Shown: piece after piece, positions 6,397 to 64,000 of the stretch | Layout of the letters: each line of letters starts with the position of its first letter | How positions within the stretch are numbered: position 1 is the first letter of the stretch | NCBI GenBank assembly: GCA_018672055.1 | Contig: JABHGM010000001.1 | Location: 136,884 to 200,883, forward strand | Length of the DNA: 64,000 nucleotides | Origin: a bacterium | GTDB taxonomy: Bacteria; Patescibacteriota; Patescibacteriia; UBA1558; UBA10009 | Direction: 5' to 3' | Program-made: the position numbers and the translations under genes | The notes under the pieces: generated by a model | What the model saw: the letters and a program-made list of their open reading frames with translations, nothing else | Database searches by the model: none | What the model was told of the DNA's origin: nothing

Positions 6397-7888
<1,492 letters not shown>

Positions 7889-8044: not shown

Positions 8045-8119
8045 GCCACGGTAGCTCAGTGGTAGAGCAGTGGACTGAAAATCCACGTGTCGGCGGTTCA
8101 ATTCCACCCCGTGGCACCA
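8045..8119 (+). tRNA. tRNA-Phe (GAA), CCA encoded
   Basis: GCCACGG acceptor stem, GTTCAATTCC T-loop, anticodon loop CTGAAAA. Confidence 0.9.
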
Positions 8120-8196
8120 GGGCGATTAGCTCAGTTGGTTAGAGCGCTACACTGATAATGTAGAGGTCGGAGGTTCAACTCCTCCATCGCCCACCA
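8120..8196 (+). tRNA. tRNA-Ile (GAT), CCA encoded, directly abutting tRNA-Phe
   Basis: GGGCGAT acceptor stem, anticodon loop CTGATAA, GGTTCAACTCC T-loop. Confidence 0.9.
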
Positions 8197-12039: not shown

Positions 12040-14783
12040 TGCCTAAAAAAGAAAAATTTATTATCATCGATGGTAACGCTCTTCTGCATAGAGCCTTCCA
12101 TGCCCTACCTCCAATGACTACGTCTGACGGAACGTTAGTTAATGCTGTTTACGGCTTTACTTCAATTCTTTTAAAAATTATTAAAGAGTTAAAACCTGAT
12201 TATTTATGTGCTTCTTTTGATAGAAAAGGTACTACTCTTCGAGCTCAAGAATTTAAAGAGTATAAGGCGCAACGTAAAAAACAACCTGATGAATTATATG
12301 CTCAAATACCTTTAATAGAAAATGTCTTAGAAGCTTTTAATATACCTGTAGTTGATTCTGAGAAAGCCGGCTATGAAGCAGATGATGTTATTGGTAGTGT
12401 AGTTACCGAATTAAAAGGTAAAAATATTTTAAGTACTATTGTTACTGGAGATTTAGATGCTTTACAACTAGTAGACAAACAAACAGAAGTCTTTACTTTA
12501 AGAAAAGGTATTTCCGATACTATTACCTATGATCCTAGTACAGTTTTTGAAAGATATTCCTTAAAACCAGATCAATTAATTGATTACAAGGCGCTACGAG
12601 GTGATCCTTCAGATAATATACCTGGAGTTCGTGGTATTGGTGAAAAGACTGCTACCGGGCTAATTAAAGCCTTTAAAACACTAGATAAGCTATATGAAGG
12701 CATTGATAAAGATGATAAGAAGTTAGGTGAATTTAAAGAGCGTATTATTAATCTACTTAAAGATAATAAGAAAGAAGCGTATTTAAGCAAAAAACTAGTT
12801 ACCATTGAAACTAATTTACCAACTAATTTTAAACTTAAAGATACAGCTCTAAATGGATTTGATACAAAAAAAATTATTAAATTATTTAGTAAATTAGAAT
12901 TTAATAGTTTACTCACTAAGATTCCTCAAAGTATGACTGGTCAGATTAATTTAGCACATAAACAGAATCAAATGGAATTCGCTAAAATTGAAACTCAAAC
13001 TAAAGATACAAAATTAAAATATACTCTAATTGATACTGATCAAAAATTTAAAGACTTTTTAAATAAAATAAGTAAAGTAAAAGAATTTGCCGTTGATACT
13101 GAGACTACTTCATTAAATATTTGGCAAGCTAAACTATTAGGTATTAGTTTTTCCTGGAATCATGATGTTGGTTACTATGTAGTAAATAATAAAAAGTATT
13201 TAAAAGACTTAAAACCTATACTAGAAGATCCTCAAATTAAAAAAGTTGGTCATCATTTAAAATATGATTACGGAATTCTCTCAAATTATGATATCTATTT
13301 AAAAGGTATTTCTTTCGATACTCTGCTAGCTGCCTATTTACTAACTTCAGGAAGTCGTAATTTAGATTTAGATAGTTTAGTATTTGCAGAATGTGAACAT
13401 AAAATGCAATCTATTGAAGAATTAATTGGACCAAGAGGTAAAAATCAATTAACTCTAGATAAAATACCTTTAGAAGAAGTGTCTTGGTATGCCTGTGAAG
13501 ATGCTGATTTTACATTAAAGCTATCTACTAAGCTCAAACCAAGAATGGATGATATAGCTGATATGGGTCTTTTAAAAAAATTGGAAATTCCTTTAATTTC
13601 TGTACTTTCTAAAATGGAAAAACAAGGTATTTTAGTAGATAAAACATTTTTAAAAAAATTAGATACTAAATTTACAAATGAATTGAAGAAAATTAAGAAA
13701 AAGATATATAAATTTGCTGGATCTGAATTTAACATTGCTTCTCCCCTTCAATTAAAAGAAATACTATTTGAAAAATTAAATATTTCTTCAGCTGGTTTAA
13801 AAAGAACTAAAACTGGTATTTCAACAGCAGCTGGTGAACTTGAAAAAATGAAAGACAGACACGCCATTATTCCTTTAATATCTCAGTTTAGAGAATATTC
13901 TAAACTACAAAATACATATACTCGTTCCCTGCAAGATGATTTAGATAAGAATAATAGGATACATACTACATTTAATCAAACTATTACTGCAACAGGTAGA
14001 TTATCTTCTTCAAAGCCTAATTTACAAAACATTCCAATTAGAACAGAGCTAGGCAGAGAAATAAGGAAAGCTTTTATAGCACCGCCTGGTTTTGAATTAA
14101 TTGCAGCTGATTATTCTCAAATAGAACTTAGAGTTATTGCTTCACTTGCTAATGATAAAAAAATGATTTCATACTTTAAACGTGGTGATGATATTCATAA
14201 AAGAACAGCAGCTAATATAAATAAAAAAGACATGAAAGATGTTACCTTTGAAGAAAGATATGCTGCTAAAGAAATTAACTTTGGCATAATATATGGTTTA
14301 GGTGCCAGAGGTTTAGCTCAAAGAACAGAACTAGATCACAGTGAAGCTAAAGCATATATTGAAGCATATTATAAGTTACATCCAAGTGTTAAAAAATGGC
14401 TTGTTGAAACTAAAGATATTGCTAGTGAACTAGGCTATGTAGAAACATTATTAGGTAGACGTAGATACTTGCCTGATATTAACTCAGGAGTACCTATGAT
14501 ACGAGCATCAGCTGAAAGAATGGCTACTAATGCTCCAATCCAAGGTACGGCAGCTGATCTACTTAAAATGGCTATGATAGAAATAGATAAAGAACTTAAT
14601 GATATTTCAACTAAAACTAATATGTTACTTACAGTACATGATGAAATAGTATTTGAAGTACCTAAAAAAGATACTAAAAAGGTTACTAAGTTTATTAAAA
14701 ATAAAATGGAAAATATATATAAATTAAGAGTACCAATTAAAGTAGATATTCACTCTGGTAAAAATTGGGGGGAATGTAAATAA
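12039..14783 (+). CDS. polA: DNA polymerase I
   Basis: 5'-nuclease N-domain (IIDGNALLHRAFHA, GDPSDNIPGVRGIGEKTA), a 3'-5' exo-like domain, then polymerase motifs RLSSSKPNLQNIP, DYSQIELRV, QGTAADL and VHDEIVFE. Confidence 0.9.
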   Translation: MPKKEKFIIIDGNALLHRAFHALPPMTTSDGTLVNAVYGFTSILLKIIKELKPDYLCASFDRKGTTLRAQEFKEYKAQRKKQPDELYAQIPLIENVLEAFNIPVVDSEKAGYEADDVIGSVVTELKGKNILSTIVTGDLDALQLVDKQTEVFTLRKGISDTITYDPSTVFERYSLKPDQLIDYKALRGDPSDNIPGVRGIGEKTATGLIKAFKTLDKLYEGIDKDDKKLGEFKERIINLLKDNKKEAYLSKKLVTIETNLPTNFKLKDTALNGFDTKKIIKLFSKLEFNSLLTKIPQSMTGQINLAHKQNQMEFAKIETQTKDTKLKYTLIDTDQKFKDFLNKISKVKEFAVDTETTSLNIWQAKLLGISFSWNHDVGYYVVNNKKYLKDLKPILEDPQIKKVGHHLKYDYGILSNYDIYLKGISFDTLLAAYLLTSGSRNLDLDSLVFAECEHKMQSIEELIGPRGKNQLTLDKIPLEEVSWYACEDADFTLKLSTKLKPRMDDIADMGLLKKLEIPLISVLSKMEKQGILVDKTFLKKLDTKFTNELKKIKKKIYKFAGSEFNIASPLQLKEILFEKLNISSAGLKRTKTGISTAAGELEKMKDRHAIIPLISQFREYSKLQNTYTRSLQDDLDKNNRIHTTFNQTITATGRLSSSKPNLQNIPIRTELGREIRKAFIAPPGFELIAADYSQIELRVIASLANDKKMISYFKRGDDIHKRTAANINKKDMKDVTFEERYAAKEINFGIIYGLGARGLAQRTELDHSEAKAYIEAYYKLHPSVKKWLVETKDIASELGYVETLLGRRRYLPDINSGVPMIRASAERMATNAPIQGTAADLLKMAMIEIDKELNDISTKTNMLLTVHDEIVFEVPKKDTKKVTKFIKNKMENIYKLRVPIKVDIHSGKNWGECK

Positions 14784-17903: not shown

Positions 17904-18395
17904 ATGGATCAAGAACAAAATAATCCTAGAAAATCAGCTGCAGATGATATTAATATTGATCAAATCGGTCAAGGTAATCTATATTCCAAAGGTGCTTCAA
18001 GTGGCGGGTCAGGTAATAAAGGCTGGGGTCTTAAAGGTCAATTATCTCAATATAGAAAAAGAGGCGGGAGAACAGAAACTAAGAATCTATCAAAACAGAA
18101 TCTTGATGATATGGAAAATTTGATTTCTAGTCGTATAAAAGGTAATTCTAGTAGATCTTCAGCTATTGTGTCTAGACAGGATAGTCTAAATATAATGAAA
18201 AAAGCTGAAGAGCTAGTTAAGACTGAGGGTAGTAATTTTACTAGGCAGGATAAAGAAGATTTAAAAAATGTTGTCAGTACTATGCGAATTAAAAGTCGTC
18301 AAGCACTTAGATCTAGACCTTTAAACAATACTAATGAATTAAAAAACAGTAGTTCAACTACTGTTAGTGATATTAATGAATTCTTAGTAGATTGA
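17904..18395 (+). CDS. hypothetical Gly/Ser/Arg-rich, probably disordered protein
   Basis: 163-aa ORF starting 2 nt after the previous stop. Low complexity. Confidence 0.35.
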   Translation: MDQEQNNPRKSAADDINIDQIGQGNLYSKGASSGGSGNKGWGLKGQLSQYRKRGGRTETKNLSKQNLDDMENLISSRIKGNSSRSSAIVSRQDSLNIMKKAEELVKTEGSNFTRQDKEDLKNVVSTMRIKSRQALRSRPLNNTNELKNSSSTTVSDINEFLVD

Positions 18396-19514
18396 TTATT
18401 TTGCGCAGTACTCATTTATTACATCTATCCCTTCTAATGGTTTTATCCTATATTTAAAATAATTCTCTTTAGTAATATTATTAATTTTAATTGAATTGCT
18501 AGATTTAAAATCACCAATAGCAATTCTTTTTAATTCTTCAATATAGGCTCCTGTTTTTAACTTTTTACCAATATCATGAGCTAGTGTTCTAATATAGGTG
18601 CCTGTACTACACTTAACTCTTATTTTTAATAAATCATTCTTAAATTCTATTAATTCAATATTATATATTTCTATTGAACTTTTTTTTCTTTTTATTACTT
18701 TACCTTGTCTGGCTAAATCATATAGCTTTTTACCATTTACTTTTTTTGCTGAATACATTGGAGGTGTTTGTTTTTGTTTACCAATAAATTTATTTAAAAC
18801 TTTTTCTAATTTTTCTTTTGAAATATCTACCTCTTTCTCTTTGCTTATAGTACCTGTTCTATCGTAAGTATCAGAAATACCCCCTAATTTAATAGTTGCC
18901 TCATATTCTTTTGGTAATAGATCAAATATACCAACAAGCTTAGTAGCCTTAGAAACAGCACATATTAAAAGACCTGTAGCAAATGGATCTAGAGTACCTG
19001 TATGGCCAATTTGTTTTAAGTCTAAAATAGACCTTAATTTAGAAACAACATCATGTGAAGTCCATTCATCTTCTTTATCAATTAGTAAAAAACCAGCTTG
19101 TTCATCCAAATGTGCTTTTCGTAATTTTCTACCTTTACAATAATCTTCTTTAAAAGGCATTAACTCTTCTATTTTATAATGTAATTTTGAATTTAATCTT
19201 AAATCATACAAGCCTTTAACAAAGAATTGTTGATCATAACCTAAAGCCACTACATCAGGCTCTTCTTCTCTTATAATTTTATATGGATCCTTTAAGTCTC
19301 CTAAGATTACTTTATCAACTATTTTCAAGATTTTTAAATAGCTTAGTCTTTCCTCTTCATTAAAATGCGGTTTAAAACCTTTATGTTTTTCTACGTTCTT
19401 ATCTCTAGCAATTATTACAATTAAAAAATCCCCCAGTTCCTTAGCTTGTCTAATTGCATCAATATGACCTGGATGAAAAAAATCGAAAGTTCCCGTTAAT
19501 ATTACTTTTTTCAT
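18396..19514 (-). CDS. truB: fusion protein: RibL-like HxGH nucleotidyltransferase domain plus tRNA pseudouridine(55) synthase TruB
   Basis: N-terminal ~130 aa (VILTGTFDFFHPGHIDAIRQAKELGDFLIVIIARDKNVEKHKGFKPHFNEEERLSYL...PDVVALGYDQ) carry cytidylyltransferase-superfamily motifs, closest by eye to archaeal FAD synthetase RibL. Residues ~140-372 (LLIDKEDEWTSHDVV...GHTGTLDPFATGLLICAVSKATK...YSAKKVNGKKLYDLAR) carry the TruB catalytic Asp and PUA-less core. Confidence 0.75.
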   Translation of the reverse strand: MKKVILTGTFDFFHPGHIDAIRQAKELGDFLIVIIARDKNVEKHKGFKPHFNEEERLSYLKILKIVDKVILGDLKDPYKIIREEEPDVVALGYDQQFFVKGLYDLRLNSKLHYKIEELMPFKEDYCKGRKLRKAHLDEQAGFLLIDKEDEWTSHDVVSKLRSILDLKQIGHTGTLDPFATGLLICAVSKATKLVGIFDLLPKEYEATIKLGGISDTYDRTGTISKEKEVDISKEKLEKVLNKFIGKQKQTPPMYSAKKVNGKKLYDLARQGKVIKRKKSSIEIYNIELIEFKNDLLKIRVKCSTGTYIRTLAHDIGKKLKTGAYIEELKRIAIGDFKSSNSIKINNITKENYFKYRIKPLEGIDVINEYCAK

Positions 19515-19574
19515 ATATTTCTATTGTATCTTACTTACTAAAATTAACAAGTATTAAATCTAAAATACTACAAA

Positions 19575-19603
19575 TTGACAAAAATCGATAGATATGTTAC
19601 AAT
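19575..19603 (+). promoter_or_regulatory. sigma70-like promoter with an extended -10
   Basis: TTGACA (19575-19580), a 17-nt spacer, TGnTACAAT (19595-19603). It sits about 165 nt upstream of the 19770 CDS. Confidence 0.4.
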
Positions 19604-19769
19604 ATATAATTATTTTACCTCTGTTATTATAATGTAAATAGCATATAACCTCTATTTATATGTTGTAAAATAATGTGAAAGATTATTAACAAAGATATTT
19701 AATCTAGGCTGATTTAAACAAATCGTAGATTAAAATGTCGCTCATTGATAAACAAAGAAAGGAAAGATC

Positions 19770-21299
19770 ATGAAAAGAATCACTCTCTTCATTATCGCTG
19801 TCTTAGCTATTAGCCAAGCATCTATAACTATTGAACCCAATATAATCATTGATCAGAGTAACAATACTGGTATTGCAACCGTCTGGATTACAAATGCTAA
19901 TGTAGATATTGCTGGAATTCACCTCGGCCTCTATGATACTGAAAATTTCAATCCTATTACAATTACCAATGTCTACGGCGAGATTTTGGAAAATTTAAAC
20001 TGGTTAACCGGCTGGAATGAAAATGAAATAATGACAGTAATGCTTAATCCAAATACACAGTTTCCAACCGGAAACAATCTTCTAATTAATATTGAATTTC
20101 AAGTTGAAGATGCGGCATGTGTTGTATTAATACCTAATCTAGAAATGCCAGCTTTCGTCTCAATGCAATCATTTAATCTGATTACAGATTATATATTCAT
20201 AAATGATGAAAATTGCGAATTAATTTCTGGTTGTACTGACCTATCAGCGCAAAACTATAACGATATCGCTCTCTATAACAACGGCACATGCGAATACGCA
20301 CCAATTATAGAACATATACCAAACCAATGGTTAACACCAAGCGAACCGTTATTGATTGAACTTAATGCCAGTGATGAGGATGATGATGAACTTACTTATT
20401 CAATAAATGATAATGGACTACTGTCAATCTTGCTAGACTCTAACGTTTTAATAATAGATACTTCTCAGTTAAATTGGGGATTCACTGAAGTCACAGTATA
20501 TGTCAGCGATGACACTTATCAAGACCAAGTCACATTCTCTATTATGGAAAACATGGAGTATGAGACTAGTTATGGAGATGTTAATAATGACGGCATTGTT
20601 AATGTAAGTGATATAGTTACAACTATTTCCATAATTTCTGGTCAATTAACCATGACTGAACAGGCAGACATTAACAGCGATGGTATTGTTAATATCATTG
20701 ATGTAGTTCTCCTAGTAGAAATTGTCTTGGGTTATAATCCTGGACGACTTTCTCCGTCGATAATTGACCTCTTACTTGAAGAAGGTTCTCTGAATACTAA
20801 AGCATCTGGTATCGCCGGTTTTCGACTAACAACTAACGTCGAAGATTTCGAAATTACGAATCATCCTGACAACTGGATACTAACACAATACGATAATCAA
20901 TTAATTATGATAAATCTCGATGGTTCAGAATCTGCTGGTAAATTATTTGAATACTCTGGTAAAATAGAAATCGAAGATGTCTTCCTGATCGGCTGGAATG
21001 GTGTTCAAATTGAAACCAATATTATTACTGTACCGAATGATTTTGAGCTATTCCCAGCTTATCCTAATCCTTTCAATCCTCAAACAACCATTGACTTTGA
21101 ATTGGCTTCTGACTCAAATGTCAAAATATCAATCTATAACTTATCCGGTCGTGAAATAGAAACCCTAGAAAATGGTACTAGACAATCCGGTTATTATTCT
21201 ATGACCTGGGATGCCAGTAGTCAAGCTACAGGCGTTTACCTAGTCAGAATGACTGTCGATAACTTTACCACCACACAAAAAGTGATGTTGGTTAAATAA
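19770..21299 (+). CDS. secreted protein with two dockerin-type Ca-binding repeats and a T9SS-type (Por) C-terminal sorting domain
   Basis: Signal peptide MKRITLFIIAVLAISQA. Dockerin repeats GDVNNDGIVNVSDIVTTISIISG and ADINSDGIVNIIDVVLLVEIVLG. The C-terminus YPNPFNPQTTIDFELASDSNVKISIYNLSGREIETL...GVYLVRMTVDNFTTTQKVMLVK matches the Por secretion tail consensus. GC and C/G-ending codon use look higher than in neighbouring genes. Confidence 0.6.
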   Translation: MKRITLFIIAVLAISQASITIEPNIIIDQSNNTGIATVWITNANVDIAGIHLGLYDTENFNPITITNVYGEILENLNWLTGWNENEIMTVMLNPNTQFPTGNNLLINIEFQVEDAACVVLIPNLEMPAFVSMQSFNLITDYIFINDENCELISGCTDLSAQNYNDIALYNNGTCEYAPIIEHIPNQWLTPSEPLLIELNASDEDDDELTYSINDNGLLSILLDSNVLIIDTSQLNWGFTEVTVYVSDDTYQDQVTFSIMENMEYETSYGDVNNDGIVNVSDIVTTISIISGQLTMTEQADINSDGIVNIIDVVLLVEIVLGYNPGRLSPSIIDLLLEEGSLNTKASGIAGFRLTTNVEDFEITNHPDNWILTQYDNQLIMINLDGSESAGKLFEYSGKIEIEDVFLIGWNGVQIETNIITVPNDFELFPAYPNPFNPQTTIDFELASDSNVKISIYNLSGREIETLENGTRQSGYYSMTWDASSQATGVYLVRMTVDNFTTTQKVMLVK

Positions 21300-41257: not shown

Positions 41258-41686
41258 ATGCCTGATACTATACCGACTGGAATAAATACAACTATCGGTT
41301 CAATAATTACTAAAAAGTTTTCTTCGACGGATGCTAAGATATATTGTATTAAAAATGCTTTTATTAAAGGCTGTGTCCATATTGTCCTAGGTTATAAAGG
41401 TAAGCAACTCACCAACATCTTTATTAATCCTGAAGACACATCAAAGGCTCGAGAGTATATAGTTATTGGCGAATTGATATCTGCTGTTTTGCAAAATTCA
41501 GATAACCCTAATATTGTATTAAAAGAATTGCGAAACATATTCGATCCTGATGAAAAACCTTTCAACGCAGACAAATACCATAAATCCTTCTATTCTGAAA
41601 TAGCTGACGTCATTGAACAATTCTTTTTAGAGGTAGGTGCTATTAAACCAATAGATAATACCAATAAAAACCATTCAATTAACTAA
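41258..41686 (+). CDS. hypothetical protein
   Basis: 142-aa ORF with no recognisable motifs. Confidence 0.35.
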   Translation: MPDTIPTGINTTIGSIITKKFSSTDAKIYCIKNAFIKGCVHIVLGYKGKQLTNIFINPEDTSKAREYIVIGELISAVLQNSDNPNIVLKELRNIFDPDEKPFNADKYHKSFYSEIADVIEQFFLEVGAIKPIDNTNKNHSIN

Positions 41687-41831: not shown

Positions 41832-42377
41832 TTATTCAATACCATATCGCTTTAATAGTTGTTTTGAATTTTCAATTGATCTTTCATGGTGTTCAAGCCC
41901 TAATAGCTCAATTACTTCTTCAAATAATTTACCTTCTGGATCACCATGTGATGATTCAAGCTCAATATACGTAGGAATTCTATTACCACCTTTGAACAGT
42001 TCTCTTATCTCGACTTTCACACCATTTAACTCAAAAACTATTTTAGTTTTTTCGATTTCAACAAAACATGAATGACCAATACGTTCAAAAATTTCATTTA
42101 ATATTCTAGCATCACCAATCTCAGTCTCTAGCTCTTTTACAGTAGCTACCTGACTTTTTAACGTTCCAGTAATTGTCTCGCCATACTTACAGGTAACAGT
42201 GGGTTTATTATTTTGAACCCTTATTCTAAGTATTTTAACTGAATCTGGAATATTATAATATCTATCACAGATACTAAGCGGAACACCTCCTCCAACGCCT
42301 AATTCTTTGAGTCGAGCAATAACTTCTTGTTTATTGATCTCTAAAATCTTAGTTTCAGGTTCATTAATTCCTGGCAT
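41832..42377 (-). CDS. CYTH-domain protein (triphosphate tunnel metalloenzyme / class IV adenylyl cyclase-like)
   Basis: N-terminal EPETKILEI (ExExK) motif and later acidic-strand motifs, in the 181 aa typical of CYTH proteins. Confidence 0.45.
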   Translation of the reverse strand: MPGINEPETKILEINKQEVIARLKELGVGGGVPLSICDRYYNIPDSVKILRIRVQNNKPTVTCKYGETITGTLKSQVATVKELETEIGDARILNEIFERIGHSCFVEIEKTKIVFELNGVKVEIRELFKGGNRIPTYIELESSHGDPEGKLFEEVIELLGLEHHERSIENSKQLLKRYGIE

Positions 42378-50661: not shown

Positions 50662-51417
50662 ATGAAATTATTTATATTAATAATTACTTTGCTTATACTA
50701 TTAAACCCATTAGCAGCTGAGGCTAGTGTCTTACCTGCTTGTACAGCTACTGGTAATTGTGGTTTATGTGACTTTTTTGATACTTTCATTAATATTATAA
50801 ATTGGTTACTAGGCGTTGTTGGTGGAATTGCTCTTTTCTTATTTGGCTGGCATGGTTTTGGTATGATAACTAGCGCAGGTAACCCAGAAAAAGTAACTGC
50901 TGCCAGAAAAGGCATGATGCATACTGTTTTAGGAATAGTTATTATTATTTTCTCTTGGTTCTTAGTTACTATCATAATCGGCATATTACTATCAACACCT
51001 GGTTCTACAGGTGATGATGCTTTCAAAAATACTTTATTTAATAATGAAGCTGCTTGGAATCAATATTGTGTAGGTAAGACTGATATTAAAAAATGCCAAG
51101 GCAGAGGCCTAGGTAGTCCTTGTGGTAGTGGTAACTTCTGTTATCCTGACGATGGTAACAAAAAAGTACTAACTTGTACTAATTCAGCTTTTATAGATAA
51201 TAAAGATGGGGATGCTCTGATTGAGGTCAAGAATGCCTGTGAATATTGGGCCAATAGGCCACTCAACCCTAAAGAAGGTTTTCATAATAATCCATACACT
51301 GGCTATACTTGTTTAGAAAAAAAATTATGTGATCCATATGAAAATTTAGGTGCCAGTTATTGTGCTACTTCTGATGCTGAATGTTGTCTGACGCTCCCCT
51401 TTGATCCTTTTTTATAA
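50662..51417 (+). CDS. VirB2/TrbC-like (T4SS-type) pilin-family paralog 1, with a ~140-aa Cys-rich C-terminal module
   Basis: Signal peptide, a variable segment (ACTATGNCGLCDFF), the helix-loop-helix core LFGWHGFGMITSAGNPEKVTAARKG then IIIFSWFLVTIIIG, and a tail with about 15 Cys. Confidence 0.5.
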   Translation: MKLFILIITLLILLNPLAAEASVLPACTATGNCGLCDFFDTFINIINWLLGVVGGIALFLFGWHGFGMITSAGNPEKVTAARKGMMHTVLGIVIIIFSWFLVTIIIGILLSTPGSTGDDAFKNTLFNNEAAWNQYCVGKTDIKKCQGRGLGSPCGSGNFCYPDDGNKKVLTCTNSAFIDNKDGDALIEVKNACEYWANRPLNPKEGFHNNPYTGYTCLEKKLCDPYENLGASYCATSDAECCLTLPFDPFL

Positions 51418-53527: not shown

Positions 53528-54073
53528 ATGAATAAAAAATATATAATTCTGTTTCTAACCTTAATAATCTTACTTATTCCTGTTTTAACATACTCCGCAA
53601 ATATTACAGATATAATAGAAGGGTTAGATAAAACAGCAGAAAAATCACTTTTAATAGATCCTAATGAAGAGGCTACTACAATATATGATATGATTGGACG
53701 TATTCTATTTTTTACTTTAAGCCTTCTTGGTATTATTTTCTTAGGTTTAATTATATTTGGTGGTATTGGTTGGTTAACAGCTGCTGGCAATGAAGAAAAG
53801 ATAACTAAAGCTAAAGGTTTGATGTCTAATGCTTTAATTGGTTTAATAATAATAATTGCTGCATATACTATAGCTAACTTTGTAATATTTACTTTAGCTG
53901 ATAAAATAACTGAGGGCAATGATTCATTATGTATAGAAGCTTCAGGAGAATGCCAAAACCATGCATTGGGTGCCACAGATTGCACAATTAATGGTTCTCC
54001 TGGTACTTATGCTTCTAATTATTGTGGAAGTCAATCAAATGATTCTCTTTATCGTTGCTGTATAGCTAACTAA
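53528..54073 (+). CDS. VirB2/TrbC-like pilin-family paralog 6, with a Cys-rich C-terminal module
   Basis: Core GGIGWLTAAGNEEKITKAKGLMSNALIGLIIIIAAY, then a ~60-aa tail with 8 Cys. Starts 1 nt after paralog 5. Confidence 0.55.
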   Translation: MNKKYIILFLTLIILLIPVLTYSANITDIIEGLDKTAEKSLLIDPNEEATTIYDMIGRILFFTLSLLGIIFLGLIIFGGIGWLTAAGNEEKITKAKGLMSNALIGLIIIIAAYTIANFVIFTLADKITEGNDSLCIEASGECQNHALGATDCTINGSPGTYASNYCGSQSNDSLYRCCIAN

Positions 54074-54979: not shown

Positions 54980-55648
54980 ATGAAATCATTTCTTTTAATA
55001 ATTGCTGTTTGTTTCTTAATCCTAGCACCCTTAACTGTGTCTAATGCTTTAAATTTAGGCCAAGAAACATATTTAGAAAGTTTAGCTGGTACAGCCGGCT
55101 ATCAAATTGATAGTGTTCAATCTAATACCTATCTTGATTCGACAATTGGTAAACTACTAGCAAGTATATTTACTTTAGTTGGTATTTCTTTCTTATCACT
55201 TATCATTGTTTCTGGATTTCAATGGATAAACGCTCATGGTAATGAAGAAAGCGCTAAAAAAGCTAAAGATCGAATAATCCATGCTACTATTGGATTAATT
55301 ATTATTGCTTCTTCCTATTTAATCTCCTTCTTCATATATAATTCAATAAATTCCTCAATTACTGGCGAGGTTAATAACTTTGTTCCAGAACCAGGCTTAG
55401 AATGTATAGATAATACAAATTGTATTGGGCATGAAAATGGACCTTACTGTAACTATAATCAAGCTACTGGTTATTGTGGTGGGTGTACAGATGACGATGA
55501 TTGTTCAAGCCCTACTCCTGAATGTGTACGTCCTCTTATTGGCCCTAGCTCATGTCATGAATGCGTAATAGATGCAGATTGTTCTGATAATTTTGGTCCC
55601 AGTTTTGTTTGTGGTAATTTCGAATGTATAGAAAATAATGATTTTTAA
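54980..55648 (+). CDS. VirB2/TrbC-like pilin-family paralog 9, with a Cys-rich C-terminal module
   Basis: Core SGFQWINAHGNEESAKKAKDRIIHATIGLIIIASSY, then a ~100-aa tail with 13 Cys, including the repeated C-x-E-C...D-x-C motifs CTDDDDCSSPTPEC and CHECVIDADC. Confidence 0.55.
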   Translation: MKSFLLIIAVCFLILAPLTVSNALNLGQETYLESLAGTAGYQIDSVQSNTYLDSTIGKLLASIFTLVGISFLSLIIVSGFQWINAHGNEESAKKAKDRIIHATIGLIIIASSYLISFFIYNSINSSITGEVNNFVPEPGLECIDNTNCIGHENGPYCNYNQATGYCGGCTDDDDCSSPTPECVRPLIGPSSCHECVIDADCSDNFGPSFVCGNFECIENNDF

Positions 55649-55653
55649 TTAAT

Positions 55654-56631
55654 ATGATAAAAAAATATAAAAAAATAATATTAAGCTCTCTAATCCTACT
55701 TTTTTTAATACTGGGAATAAATGTTTTAGCACAAGGTGGTTTTCAACAAGAGTTAATAAATAATATTGCTAGTACTACTGAAATTGTTGGTCAAGGACCA
55801 GGTTACAATACAAACGCTCAAGGTGAGGATTTTTTTGGAGGTATTTTAATTAAAATATTTGGTTATGGAATTAGTTTCTTAGGCGTTTTCTTCATGTTAC
55901 TTATTGTCTACTCTGGATTTCAATGGATGTTTTCTAGTGGTAATGAAGAAAAGGTTACTCAAGCTAAAACTAGAATTACTCAAGCAGTGACAGGTTTAGT
56001 TATTGTCTTAGGTGCTTTTATAATCTCCTATGCTATATTCTCATTCTTGACTACAGAATATTTAGAAACCCCTTCCTCTGGCATTCAAGCTCCTGATGGT
56101 TATCAAGAGCAAATAGCTTGTAGTAATTCTAATAGTGATACGCCTCCTGAATGCGCTGATAGAGGAACTAGAATATATTGTTCTAGCTCTGGTAATTGTG
56201 TTGAATGTTTAGACGACGCACGTTGTGCAGAAGCTCCATTTGAACCGCTCGGCTTAACATCTTGCGACCCAACTTGGAATGTTTGTACTTTCGATTTAGA
56301 TCATACATGTGCTGAAATTACCAACGCTGGCTTATGCATATCTAATGAAAGTTGTAATTGGGCACTGACACCGTCTAACCCAACATGGGAGACAGGTGTA
56401 TGTGTTAATTCAAATGAATATAATTGCACAACTGGACAATGCCCTCAAGATAGGCCATATTGCATAAATAATAATCAACCAGAAGGAGAATATAGCTGTC
56501 ATGAATGCAGCCCTGGTATAGATGCTTCATGTGGTCTTTTAAAAAACTGCACACAGCCATTTCTTGAAGGTGGTGAAGGTATCAATGAAGATGATTATCA
56601 TCTCTACATTTGTACAATTTTTGGTTTTTAA
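55654..56631 (+). CDS. VirB2/TrbC-like pilin-family paralog 10, with a long (~185-aa) Cys-rich C-terminal module
   Basis: Core SGFQWMFSSGNEEKVTQAKTRITQAVTGLVIVLGAF, then a tail with about 24 Cys including CVECLDDARC and CHECSPGIDASC, the same motif seen in paralog 9. Confidence 0.55.
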   Translation: MIKKYKKIILSSLILLFLILGINVLAQGGFQQELINNIASTTEIVGQGPGYNTNAQGEDFFGGILIKIFGYGISFLGVFFMLLIVYSGFQWMFSSGNEEKVTQAKTRITQAVTGLVIVLGAFIISYAIFSFLTTEYLETPSSGIQAPDGYQEQIACSNSNSDTPPECADRGTRIYCSSSGNCVECLDDARCAEAPFEPLGLTSCDPTWNVCTFDLDHTCAEITNAGLCISNESCNWALTPSNPTWETGVCVNSNEYNCTTGQCPQDRPYCINNNQPEGEYSCHECSPGIDASCGLLKNCTQPFLEGGEGINEDDYHLYICTIFGF

Positions 56632-63118: not shown

Positions 63119-63136
63119 AATACTAAGAAATTTTAA
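63119..63136 (+). repeat. 18-bp direct repeat, copy 2 (AATACTAAGAAATTTTAA)
   Basis: Perfect copy of 62298-62315. It contains the TAG stop codon (minus strand) of tyrS. Confidence 0.8.
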
Positions 63137-64000
63137 CAAATTTTCTCTTACCAACTTGTATAATCATGCCTGATTTTACTTCTATCTCTGATATAGAAAT
63201 TATTTTTTTATCATCTATCTTTACTGCTCCTTGTTTTACCATTCTCTTTGCATCTGATTTTGAAGACACAAGCTTTGTTTCAAATAATAATTCAATAATA
63301 TCCCATTTCTTATTTTCAATTTTAACTTCTTTAATATCATCTGGTATTTCATTATCCTTAAACTGTTTATCAAAATTATCTGAAGCAGTTTTTGCTTTTT
63401 TTTCACCATAAAACATCTTGACTATTTCATTAGCTAATTTAGCCTTAATATCTCTTGGGTTTGCACCAGATTTTATTTGTGATTCAATGCCTATTATATC
63501 ATCCATAGGTACACGAGTTACTAAAGTAAAATATTTAACAATCAAGTCATCTGAAATTGACATCACTTTACCAAACATATTATTTGGTTCTAAGGTTAAA
63601 TCAATTGTATTACCCCATGAAGAACTCATTTTTCTTGAATCAGTGCCTGCCATAAGTTCCGTCATTAATATATTTTGTGGTTCTTGTTTAAAATGCTCTT
63701 GCATCTTTCTGCCAGCTAAAAGATTAAATCTTTGATCAGTTCCGCCAAGCTCAACATCTGCTTTTATAGCTACGCTATCGTAGCCCTGCATTAAAGGATA
63801 AAGCATTTCTCTGAGTGATACTCTTGAGCCTTTATCTAATCTTTTTTTAATATTTTCACGAGCAATAAACTCAGCGACTGAAAATAGATTAGCTTGTTCC
63901 CCTATTTCATTATATTTTAATTTCTTTAGCCACTTACTATTATATTTAACTTCGCATTTTCTTAAATTAATAATCTTACCTGCTTGGGCAGCATACTCTG
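63123..64000 (-). CDS. tyrS: tyrosine--tRNA ligase (C-terminal ~290 aa; the 5' part runs off the window)
   Basis: LYPLMQGYD...ELGGTDQRFN, KMSSSWGN (KMSKS motif) and the C-terminal S4 domain KSDAKRMVKQGAVKIDDKKI. The same frame stays open upstream of the listed Met out to the window edge. Confidence 0.75.
   Translation of the reverse strand, partial: EYAAQAGKIINLRKCEVKYNSKWLKKLKYNEIGEQANLFSVAEFIARENIKKRLDKGSRVSLREMLYPLMQGYDSVAIKADVELGGTDQRFNLLAGRKMQEHFKQEPQNILMTELMAGTDSRKMSSSWGNTIDLTLEPNNMFGKVMSISDDLIVKYFTLVTRVPMDDIIGIESQIKSGANPRDIKAKLANEIVKMFYGEKKAKTASDNFDKQFKDNEIPDDIKEVKIENKKWDIIELLFETKLVSSKSDAKRMVKQGAVKIDDKKIISISEIEVKSGMIIQVGKRKFVKIS

Follow-up and report, generated by a model that had tools for sequence, protein, structure and literature searches.

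A RibL-like nucleotidyltransferase domain joined to the N-terminus of a PUA-less TruB in Patescibacteria

The locus and the fusion gene

The window, the whole 64-kb stretch of Patescibacteria DNA that was analysed, contains a gene in which a RibL-like nucleotidyltransferase domain is followed in the same frame by the tRNA pseudouridine-55 synthase TruB. A six-frame HMM scan of the 64 kb finds one RibL-like region and one TruB region. The gene lies between uvrB and rpsT, which are on the opposite strand, and stands alone. The features of the locus are the following:

18345..18365, minus strand: terminator-like hairpin, a 9-bp stem followed by a T-run, which begins 31 nt past the stop codon
18396..19514, minus strand: complete fusion gene, 372 codons and a stop codon (ORF list and sequence; both domains in one frame)
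18399..19130, minus strand: PUA-less TruB catalytic core, residues 129–372 (TIGR00431, PDB and Foldseek matches)
18972..19007, minus strand: TruB active-site motif G170-H-T-G-T-L-D176-P-F-A-T-G181, aligned with the catalytic motif of TruBs in the PDB
19128..19139, minus strand: junction motif C126-K-G-R129 (class-wise column conservation and alignment of an unfused orthologue, P0120)
19131..19514, minus strand: RibL-like HxGH nucleotidyltransferase domain, residues 1–128, a putative FMN adenylyltransferase/FAD synthase (Pfam, sequence identity, HMM and Foldseek)
19230..19241, minus strand: G92-Y-D-Q95, part of the “LGYDQ” motif, invariant in N-type fusions
19464..19475, minus strand: HxGH nucleotide-binding motif H14-P-G-H17, invariant in 41 N-type fusions
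19515..19769, no strand assigned: AT-rich divergent intergenic region 5′ of the fusion gene, the presumed promoter region (from sequence)

A scan with a terminator consensus gave one site against 0.5 expected, which on its own is weak evidence, and promoter-like hexamers in 19515..19769 are no commoner than in shuffled sequence. The preliminary description placed the gene in an rRNA/tRNA maturation operon; the opposite-strand flanks, the identity of the neighbours uvrB and rpsT and the gene's own terminator-like hairpin contradict this.

The 372-amino-acid reading frame starts with ATG and has no internal stop codon or frameshift in either the ORF list or the sequence; a protein identical to it over 100% of positions (P0001) is present in public data. 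It includes every peptide string quoted in the preliminary description. Pfam assigns CTP_transf_like (PF01467) to residues 6–117 (E 3.8e-19), TruB_N (PF01509) to residues 161–308 (E 1.1e-53) and TruB_C_2 to residues 309–354. Two of the domains named beforehand, CTP_transf_like and TruB_N, are thus present, while FAD_syn (PF06574) gives no match at E<=1, nor does the flavokinase family PF01687. The unfused orthologue P0120 aligns from residue 129 of the fusion protein onward, so that the earlier estimate of an N-terminal domain of ~130 residues was roughly right and the boundary is more sharply placed at 128/129; the RibL-derived part ends at C126-K-G-R129. The AlphaFold2 model of the full-length protein (pLDDT 92, pTM 0.86) has no disordered linker, and its pTM suggests fixed packing of the two domains, which could allow functional cross-talk.

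The two halves of the protein

The N-terminal domain is an HxGH nucleotidyltransferase of the cytidylyltransferase fold, as first proposed, according to both the PF01467 match and the fold comparison. Its closest family is that of RibL, the archaeal FAD synthase (MJ1179, EC 2.7.7.2), which shares its fold and, at ~130–150 residues, is of comparable size. The first 98 residues are 50% identical to a Methanocaldococcus RibL (P0242, labelled “FAD synthetase” by its sources) with an E-value of 8e-30. An HMM built from 120 archaeal RibL proteins scores the domain at 122 bits and the Thermoplasma volcanium protein 3glv at 138 bits, as against 53–59 bits for TagD, HldC and ECT. Among solved structures 3glv is the best match both by sequence (E 9.6e-23, followed by ECT at 2e-17 and TagD at 1e-11, with PPAT at E >=0.004 and NadM, MJ0541, at 0.67) and by fold (top Foldseek match, TM 0.90, rmsd 1.8 Å); structure comparison also matches the fold to TagD and HldC. 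In a neighbour-joining tree 3glv groups with archaeal RibL, in line with its HMM score, and the depositors' name, “lipopolysaccharide core biosynthesis protein”, probably implies the wrong function. Unlike the fusion, 3glv is a standalone archaeal protein, and we know of no ligand-bound flavin complex of it.

A RibF-type origin of the domain is ruled out by Pfam, by an NF045965 (RibF_rel) score of 22.5 bits, where the cutoff is 200, and by the fold matches, the top 50 of which include no RibF FMNAT module. Weak PF06574 co-hits on some homologues are superfamily cross-talk and not a RibF relationship. Bacterial RibF (PF06574 with PF01687) belongs to the same broad HxGH superfamily but to a different subfamily, and its riboflavin-kinase module is absent from the fusion. 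An NadM/NMNAT identity, prompted by NUDIX fusions of related domains, is ruled out by the MJ0541 E-value given above. The scores against NCBIfam models of other families also lie far below their curated cutoffs (rfaE_dom_II 64.3 bits against 181.5, TagD 46.6 against 165.4, PPAT 25.9–30.6 against 103–104, NMNAT 14–17 against 127–341), and the generic domain model TIGR00125 is the only NCBIfam level reached, with no curated equivalog. The neighbour-joining tree places the domain on the RibL side, with a bootstrap of 45% for the split between the RibL family and outgroups that are partial sequences. Several standalone relatives are labelled “FAD synthetase” by JGI, and NCBI names the relatives only “adenylyltransferase/cytidyltransferase family protein”. 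Judged by these comparisons the domain is of RibL type and not of bacterial RibF type; in HMM score, identity and fold alike it resembles RibL far more than TagD, HldE, PPAT, NadM or bacterial RibF, in agreement with the preliminary description.

Column conservation was compared in four classes, namely N-fused, C-fused and standalone domains and archaeal RibL. The motifs that RibL and the fusion share (GTFDxxHPGH, ARD, K..P...E..R and LGxDQ) are retained throughout, the positions GTFDxxHxGH, ARD, K45, P49, E53, R56, PD and LGYDQ being 96–100% conserved across all four classes, with the HxGH motif itself at 96–100% and Q95 at 100%. LGYDQ is common to archaeal RibL and 3glv and absent from TagD, HldC and ECT; its counterpart is MGDD/MGHDW in TagD and KGGDY in 5x9q. 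Across N-type fusions that are only 42–66% identical overall, HxGH and ~20 other positions of the RibL catalytic core are invariant.

The fusion departs from RibL at the end of the domain. The C-terminal Ser-Ser of RibL is the counterpart of the ISST motif of other nucleotidyltransferases, and the conserved cysteine pair of RibL is linked to its air sensitivity. Archaeal RibL has C-S-S at this phosphate-binding position (Ser 97% and Ser 93%) and the standalone and C-fused relatives have Y-K-S-S, while the N-fused class has K-G-K/R, Gly-Lys/Arg replacing Ser-Ser. A single cysteine, C126, takes the place of the pair; it is present in 71% of N-type fusions and is a Tyr in the standalone and C-fused relatives. 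The helix that follows Ser-Ser in RibL is also missing, and the N-terminus of TruB begins there instead. The fusion further differs from RibL in its bacterial host and in the covalent attachment to TruB. The FAD synthase of Entamoeba histolytica (EhFADS, EHI_198800) is a RibL-family enzyme outside Archaea, to which the fusion is likened by description only; it is a standalone eukaryotic protein, unlike the fusion, and has a degenerate second motif and no cysteine pair, and is still an active FAD synthase (PMC11423594). Ser-Ser may be non-essential, because this motif is also degenerate in the active Entamoeba enzyme (PMC11423594).

The altered Ser-Ser motif bears on the choice of substrate. 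It is unlikely that the domain is active on a substrate other than FMN, such as a polyol- or sugar-phosphate, 4′-phosphopantetheine, NMN or another nucleotide-related phosphate, and that the CPR/DPANN clade is a paralogous RibL subfamily with a different job. The generic level of the TIGR00125 match and of the NCBI names would fit this, as would the failure to find a flavokinase nearby and the fusion partners of related domains, many of which handle nucleotides (Ham1, NUDIX, guanylate kinase) and none of which is a flavin enzyme. The RibL HMM score, twice that of TagD, HldC and ECT, the 50% identity to RibL, the retention of the RibL-specific LGYDQ and ARD...K..P...E..R motifs, and the marginal PPAT and NadM matches (E 0.004–0.7) argue for FMN, and the Entamoeba enzyme, 41% identical to RibL, has been proven to be an FAD synthase (PMC11423594).

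The second half of the protein scores 239.5 bits with the NCBIfam TruB model TIGR00431 (cutoff 151.45) and matches TruBs in the PDB with E-values down to 6e-44. Its core is 35–37% identical to TruB of E. coli (1k8w) and T. maritima (1r3e/2ab4), and Foldseek superimposes it on 2ab4 with an rmsd of 1.7 Å over 220 columns (E 1e-26 for 2ab4/1r3e). The catalytic Asp176 is encoded by nucleotides 18987–18989 of the minus strand, within GHTGTLDPFATG. In 41 N-type fusions no variation is seen at G173, T174, L175, D176 and P177, nor at H14, G16 and H17; both halves have invariant catalytic residues. Residues 129–372 make up, by sequence and fold, a complete catalytic core of TruB that includes the catalytic Asp, as had been claimed from the DNA alone, and Pfam, TIGR00431, PDB and Foldseek alignments concur.

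What distinguishes it from the E. coli and T. maritima enzymes, apart from the 128-residue N-terminal enzyme domain, is that it ends without the C-terminal PUA domain: Pfam gives no PUA or TruB_C match on the fusion protein, which aligns only to residues 4–223 of the 309-residue T. maritima TruB. PUA is dispensable for TruB catalysis, and TruB acts on T-arm minihelices. Unfused CPR TruBs of ~230 residues also have no PUA. The N-terminal domain could be imagined as a catalytically dead appendage, structural, ligand-sensing or tRNA-binding, which offsets the absent PUA, and the basic C-K-G-K/R-x-x-R-K sequence that stands at the junction in place of the phosphate-binding motif would suit such a role, as would a junction helix that is confident only in the full-length model (the two models used different alignments). 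This is highly improbable given the invariance of HxGH and ~20 other RibL core positions in such divergent fusions, and the unfused CPR TruBs manage without PUA and without an extra domain.

Recurrence and origin of the fusion

The 119 nearest TruB homologues, all apparently from Patescibacteria, comprise 52 proteins with the RibL-like domain at the N-terminus (N-type), 33 with it at the C-terminus (C-type) and 34 that are unfused. The N-type architecture occurs at 43–65% identity in dozens of independent assemblies, its members forming over 50 distinct protein clusters (NCBI, JGI, ENA and Logan), and a junction motif, EPFKEDxCKGK, is conserved among its members. N-fused, C-fused and unfused truB share one orthologous locus, uvrB-truB-rpsT-holA. 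An artefact, be it a chimeric contig or two neighbouring genes run together by a frameshift in sequencing or assembly, has a practically negligible probability in view of this conserved synteny and junction motif and the number of clusters; the continuous reading frame and the recurrence in independent assemblies rule out frameshift and misassembly, and the gene is a single one, as first described. A scan of species genomes for close relatives gave only ordinary TruBs (Delongbacteria, Clostridia, Saccharibacteria). The fusion had been called unusual, which is true by comparison with textbook bacteria only; in Patescibacteria it is common and occurs in both domain orders.

Komeilibacteria, a candidate phylum in which N-type fusions also occur, include a genome with an unfused truB at the orthologous locus, and no remnant of a RibL domain was found beside this gene. 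The RibL domains of N- and C-type fusions were grouped together in none of 200 neighbour-joining bootstraps, and standalone proteins lie nearer than C-type domains to the domain studied here; these trees are weakly supported, with a bootstrap of 29% for N-type monophyly, and the tree of TruB moieties does not resolve the branching. Circular permutation of a single ancestral fusion is disfavoured by the failure of the two kinds of RibL domain ever to form a clade, with the same weak support. The fusion at the truB locus seems, from these sequences, to have arisen at least twice, once on each side, and the two orders would be of independent origin.

RibL-like relatives are also fused to at least ten unrelated partners, among them Ham1, NUDIX, TilS, DTD, Gmk, 5-FTHF cyclo-ligase, AlkD, M15 peptidase and HTH regulators. 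In CPR bacteria and DPANN archaea the small ribL-like gene appears to fuse readily to any adjacent housekeeping gene, which makes it a clear case of a small enzyme gene that, in streamlined genomes, joins promiscuously with many housekeeping partners. In the literature searched, neither a TruB-RibL fusion nor RibL in CPR is described.

Proposed function and flavin context

The protein is probably bifunctional, with two autonomous catalytic modules, a RibL-type FMN adenylyltransferase and a Ψ55 synthase, joined end to start without a linker. In module 1 (residues 1–128) ATP would most likely be bound through H14-x-G-H17 and AMP most likely transferred onto FMN to yield FAD (EC 2.7.7.2), while module 2 (residues 129–372) would act as a minimal, PUA-less TruB, converting U55 of tRNA to pseudouridine via Asp176. 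The choice of FMN is in line with the measured FAD synthase activity of RibL and of the RibL-like Entamoeba enzyme (PMC11423594); among CPR/DPANN members of the clade the literature searched holds no characterised enzyme. The two activities would be independent, and because the reactions share no substrate the benefit of the fusion is most likely limited to co-expression, stability or genome compaction, without channelling. The enzymology would be new only in its context, the families of both halves being well known.

Flavin-related genes are absent from the 50 ORFs of the window that were scanned, and no riboflavin kinase, flavin transporter or flavoenzyme occurs either in the 64-kb window or among the RibL-like fusion partners. 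Riboflavin synthesis and ribF, ribK and ribL were not found in 17 Parcubacteria genomes, and reconstructions of CPR metabolism list FAD synthase among the near-universal functions that are lacking, despite the retention of the FAD-dependent flavoenzymes MurB and TrxB (PMC4508563). Nearly all named fusion proteins are called simply “TruB” by NCBI and JGI, and because of this a homology-based census would miss a hidden RibL-type enzyme. The fusion may hide the FAD synthase reported missing from CPR/Patescibacteria. If the N-terminal domain is an FMN adenylyltransferase, part of the FAD-synthase gap is an annotation artefact, and hosts need supply only FMN or riboflavin and not FAD. The domain is also a case of an archaeal-type, here putative, cofactor enzyme common to CPR bacteria and DPANN archaea.

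In ordinary bacteria adjacency of truB and ribF is widespread (PMC4630832, PMC2447356). There the genes are separate, with truB upstream, and the fusion is one gene, but both arrangements juxtapose truB with an FAD-synthesising nucleotidyltransferase, a putative one in the fusion. The TruB-RibL fusion is a natural test of whether this classic neighbourhood has any meaning, and together with the pairing of TruB in both orders at the same locus the adjacency could point to a genuine link. A specific functional link between FAD supply and modification of the tRNA T-loop could take the form of FAD delivery to the FAD-dependent U54 methyltransferase TrmFO, which acts beside U55, or of a flavin- or ATP-regulated TruB, and the apparently tight packing of the domains (no linker) and the occurrence of two further tRNA enzymes, TilS and DTD, among the partners are consistent with it. 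Such a link is nonetheless very unlikely, as enzymes of DNA repair, the cell wall, folate and nucleotides equally carry the RibL-like domain, TruB is unfused at the same locus in the Komeilibacteria genome, standalone RibL-like genes in CPR do not adjoin truB, and no trmFO was seen. To our knowledge no biochemical link between FAD supply and T-loop modification has been described. The flavin-tRNA coupling put forward in the preliminary description is undermined in particular by the variety of unrelated partners. A combined proposal, that the RibL-like domain, standalone or hidden in genes annotated as TruB, Ham1, NUDIX, TilS and others, is the missing CPR/DPANN FAD synthase and that its fusions to TruB, in both orders at one locus and reminiscent of the truB-ribF adjacency, represent a real Ψ55-FAD link, for instance because T-loop modification depends on flavin or because TruB senses flavin or ATP, is quite unlikely as a whole.

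At the far end of the window, a TyrRS ORF (63123–63806) looks truncated and runs past the window end.

The fusion gene and its two halves

The window is bacterial DNA of low GC content (~29%), and the nearest relatives of its proteins in a protein search all come from Patescibacteria/CPR assemblies. The gene under study encodes a RibL-like nucleotidyltransferase domain (residues 1–128) followed by TruB (residues 129–372).

18396–19514, minus strand: fusion gene, a single 372-codon open-reading frame with no internal stops
Residues 6–117: CTP_transf_like (Pfam, E 3.8e-19)
Residues 161–308: TruB_N (Pfam, E 1.1e-53)
Residues 309–354: TruB_C_2 (Pfam)

The fusion announced in the preliminary description thus exists, with both domains recognized by Pfam in one reading frame and every quoted peptide string found in it. 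The protein scores 239.5 bits against TIGR00431, the NCBIfam TruB equivalog (cutoff 151.45). The only NCBIfam model reached by the N-terminal part is the generic ‘cyt_tran_rel’ domain model, and this part falls far under the cutoffs of rfaE domain II, TagD, PPAT, NMNAT and RibF_rel. A six-frame HMM scan of the window revealed no further RibL-like or TruB gene.

A frameshift between two genes, or an assembly artefact, is ruled out by the continuity of the frame and by the recurrence of the architecture: among 5.8 billion proteins, dozens of distinct clusters carry the same three Pfam domains and are 43–65% identical to the query. Their source assemblies (NCBI, JGI, ENA and Logan) belong to Komeilibacteria and other Patescibacteria, and nearly all of the proteins are labelled there only as ‘tRNA pseudouridine(55) synthase TruB’. 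In an alignment of 41 fusions, the nucleotidyltransferase residues G8, F10, D11, H14, P15, G16, H17, D38, K45, R56, P86 and G92-Y-D-Q95 are invariant, as is the TruB active site G173-T-L-D176-P, at an overall identity of merely 42–66%; the catalytic positions of both halves are thus under purifying selection.

An unfused Komeilibacteria TruB of 260 residues (P0120) aligns to query residues 129–370, which places the end of the RibL-derived part at about C126-K-G128; beyond this point standalone CPR RibL-like proteins have just 5–8 further residues. Helix 128–136 belongs to TruB itself, as its N-terminal segment. AF2 models the full-length protein with confidence (pLDDT 92, pTM 0.86), without a disordered linker and with the two domains seemingly in close contact. 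In this model the TruB half can be superposed on the T. maritima enzyme with 1.7 Å over 220 columns; it aligns solely to residues 4–223 of that 309-residue protein, and Pfam matched no PUA domain in the fusion protein. It is a minimal, PUA-less TruB, similar to the unfused TruBs of other CPR bacteria, which are roughly 230 residues long and lack PUA too.

Identity of the N-terminal domain

A sequence of M. jannaschii RibL, the archaeal FAD synthase, served solely as bait. It retrieved Methanocaldococcus proteins of 96–97% identity called ‘FAD synthetase’ by their sources, and a further 120 relatives from archaea, of which many bear the name ‘FAD synthase’. Over 98 residues the query domain shares 50% identity with one Methanocaldococcus protein (P0242; E 8e-30). 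An HMM derived from these 120 archaeal sequences gives 122 bits for query residues 1–100 and 138 bits for the Thermoplasma volcanium structure 3glv, as opposed to 53–59 bits for TagD from two species, the HldC-like 5x9q and human ECT. By sequence, PDB entries rank in the order 3glv (1e-22), ECT (2e-17), TagD (1e-11) and HldC-like (1e-9), with CCT, PPAT (≥0.004) and NadM (0.67) at the tail. The AF2 model of the domain alone (pLDDT 88.6) is also closest in fold to 3glv (TM 0.90, rmsd 1.8 Å), followed by cytidylyltransferases and PPAT, and no FMNAT module of the bacterial enzyme RibF is among the best 50 matches. The assignment to the RibL rather than the RibF type is therefore correct.

Four classes were compared column by column: 52 fusions with the RibL-like domain N-terminal to TruB (N-fused), 33 with it C-terminal (C-fused), 118 standalone CPR/DPANN proteins and 116 archaeal RibLs. 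GTFDxxHxGH, ARD, K45, P49, E53, R56, P86-D87 and LGYDQ are 96–100% conserved across all four; the last is not found in TagD (MGDD), HldC (KGGDY) or ECT. The second, C-terminal motif reads C-S-S in archaeal RibL, Y-K-S-S in standalone and C-fused proteins and C-K-G-K/R in N-fused ones, where the change of the Ser-Ser motif is a derived feature. Its loss is no strong argument against the predicted activity, since an Entamoeba RibL homolog with a degenerate second motif, lacking the cysteine pair, is a proven FAD synthase (PMC11423594).

The locus and the two fusion orders

Among the 119 nearest TruB homologs, the RibL-like domain is N-terminal in 52, C-terminal in 33 and absent in 34. The C-fused proteins come from Parcubacteria, Jackson-, Sung- and Kuenenbacteria, and all three forms of truB occur in an orthologous genomic context.

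Window: rpoB – mur ligase – DUF1003 – NTP-transferase – femAB – ruvA – uvrB – fusion – rpsT – holA – polA
Loci L001 and L018, N-fused relatives: gene order as in the window
Locus L004, 8001–9098, and locus L017, 7001–8089: C-fused genes (TruB, then RibL-like domain) after uvrB in the same block
Locus L015, 2622–3404: unfused Komeilibacteria truB, located between uvrB and rpsT; neither a RibL-like gene nor a remnant of one was found nearby

Two fusion orders at one locus could stem from a single event followed by permutation, or from independent fusions on both sides of truB. A neighbor-joining tree built on the RibL-like domains unites the N-fused ones in a single clade (29% bootstrap) and disperses the C-fused ones among standalone proteins; the two sets group together in 0 of 200 bootstraps. 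The tree of TruB moieties is unresolved. As the two sets never group and the query domain is nearer to standalone proteins (mean distance 0.90) than to C-fused ones (1.26), the comparison favors independent fusions, with weak tree support.

The fusion gene lies outside any nusA-infB-rbfA-truB operon, both of its neighbors are on the opposite strand, and it has its own terminator-like hairpin.

18345–18365: terminator-like hairpin, 31 nt past the fusion gene stop
17904–18395, plus strand: 163-residue, low-complexity, Ser/Asn/Lys-rich frame without Pfam match, its end flush with the fusion gene stop
19770–21299, plus strand: 509-residue protein with a T9SS-type C-terminal sorting domain (Por_Secre_tail), dockerin and FlgD-Ig, between uvrB and the fusion gene

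The 163-residue frame is doubtful as a real gene, since the hairpin lies inside it. Since a sorting signal of the T9SS type is not expected in a CPR genome, the 509-residue protein may be a horizontally acquired surface protein; local GC is slightly raised (0.327), and L001, L018 and L015 have a small frame or nothing at this position. In another CPR genome (locus L016), an unfused truB adjoins infB and rbfA.

Elsewhere in the window, a 16S rRNA gene (6398–7887) is followed by two tRNA genes (8045–8193) and then protein-coding genes. No 23S rRNA gene is present in the 64 kb; the rRNA operon is unlinked, a common arrangement in CPR bacteria. At least four T4SS_pilin paralogs are clustered on the plus strand (50662–51417, 53528–54073, 54980–55648 and 55654–56631), and a similar array occurs at 13870–16807 of L016, an unrelated CPR locus. 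A small standalone TSCPD-domain protein (41258–41686, plus strand) adjoins a CYTH-domain protein (41832–42377, minus strand); both belong to short, poorly characterized families.

Fusion partners and predicted function

An exhaustive phmmer search of 1.84 billion representatives with the N-terminal domain gave 11,185 relatives; 1,392 have E≤1e-10, and many of the closest are 260–590 residues long. Pfam scans of 20 close relatives (in the range P0362–P0506), whose RibL-like domains are 40–47% identical to the query, found as partners Ham1/ITPase (in both orders), NUDIX, TilS, D-aminoacyl-tRNA deacylase, guanylate kinase, 5-formyl-THF cyclo-ligase, an AlkD-type DNA repair enzyme, M15 D-Ala-D-Ala dipeptidase, AsnC- and TrmB-type HTH regulators and TruB; riboflavin kinase was found in none of the 20. 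Names are attached to two of these relatives, one from a Nanoarchaeota archaeon and the other from a Patescibacteria bacterium. In CPR genomes, the standalone RibL-like genes do not adjoin truB.

Such varied partners, together with standalone genes away from truB, argue against a dedicated coupling of flavin metabolism to tRNA modification. The earlier interpretation accordingly stands in part: its RibL-type domain holds, while the flavin-tRNA coupling is not supported and the gene does not lie in an rRNA/tRNA-maturation operon. The variety of fusion partners is consistent with a small essential gene that frequently lands in-frame with a neighbor in streamlined genomes. In a scan of 50 open-reading frames of the window, Pfam detected no flavokinase, FAD_syn, riboflavin synthesis gene or obvious flavoenzyme.

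The reading with the best support is that of a bifunctional protein whose two active sites are independent of each other: a putative RibL-type FMN adenylyltransferase, predicted by homology, and a psi55 synthase, predicted at the equivalog level. Fusion would probably provide co-expression or stability, not channelling. RibL and TruB are each of a known kind; no description of this architecture or of RibL-type enzymes in CPR was found in the literature searched.

Nelson and Stegen reported ribF, ribK and ribL to be absent from 17 Parcubacteria genomes that keep MurB and TrxB, both FAD-dependent; their list of missing near-universal functions includes FAD synthase (PMC4508563). Parcubacteria-labelled proteins occur among both the C-fused and the standalone RibL-like proteins, and at least part of the reported absence may therefore be an annotation gap.
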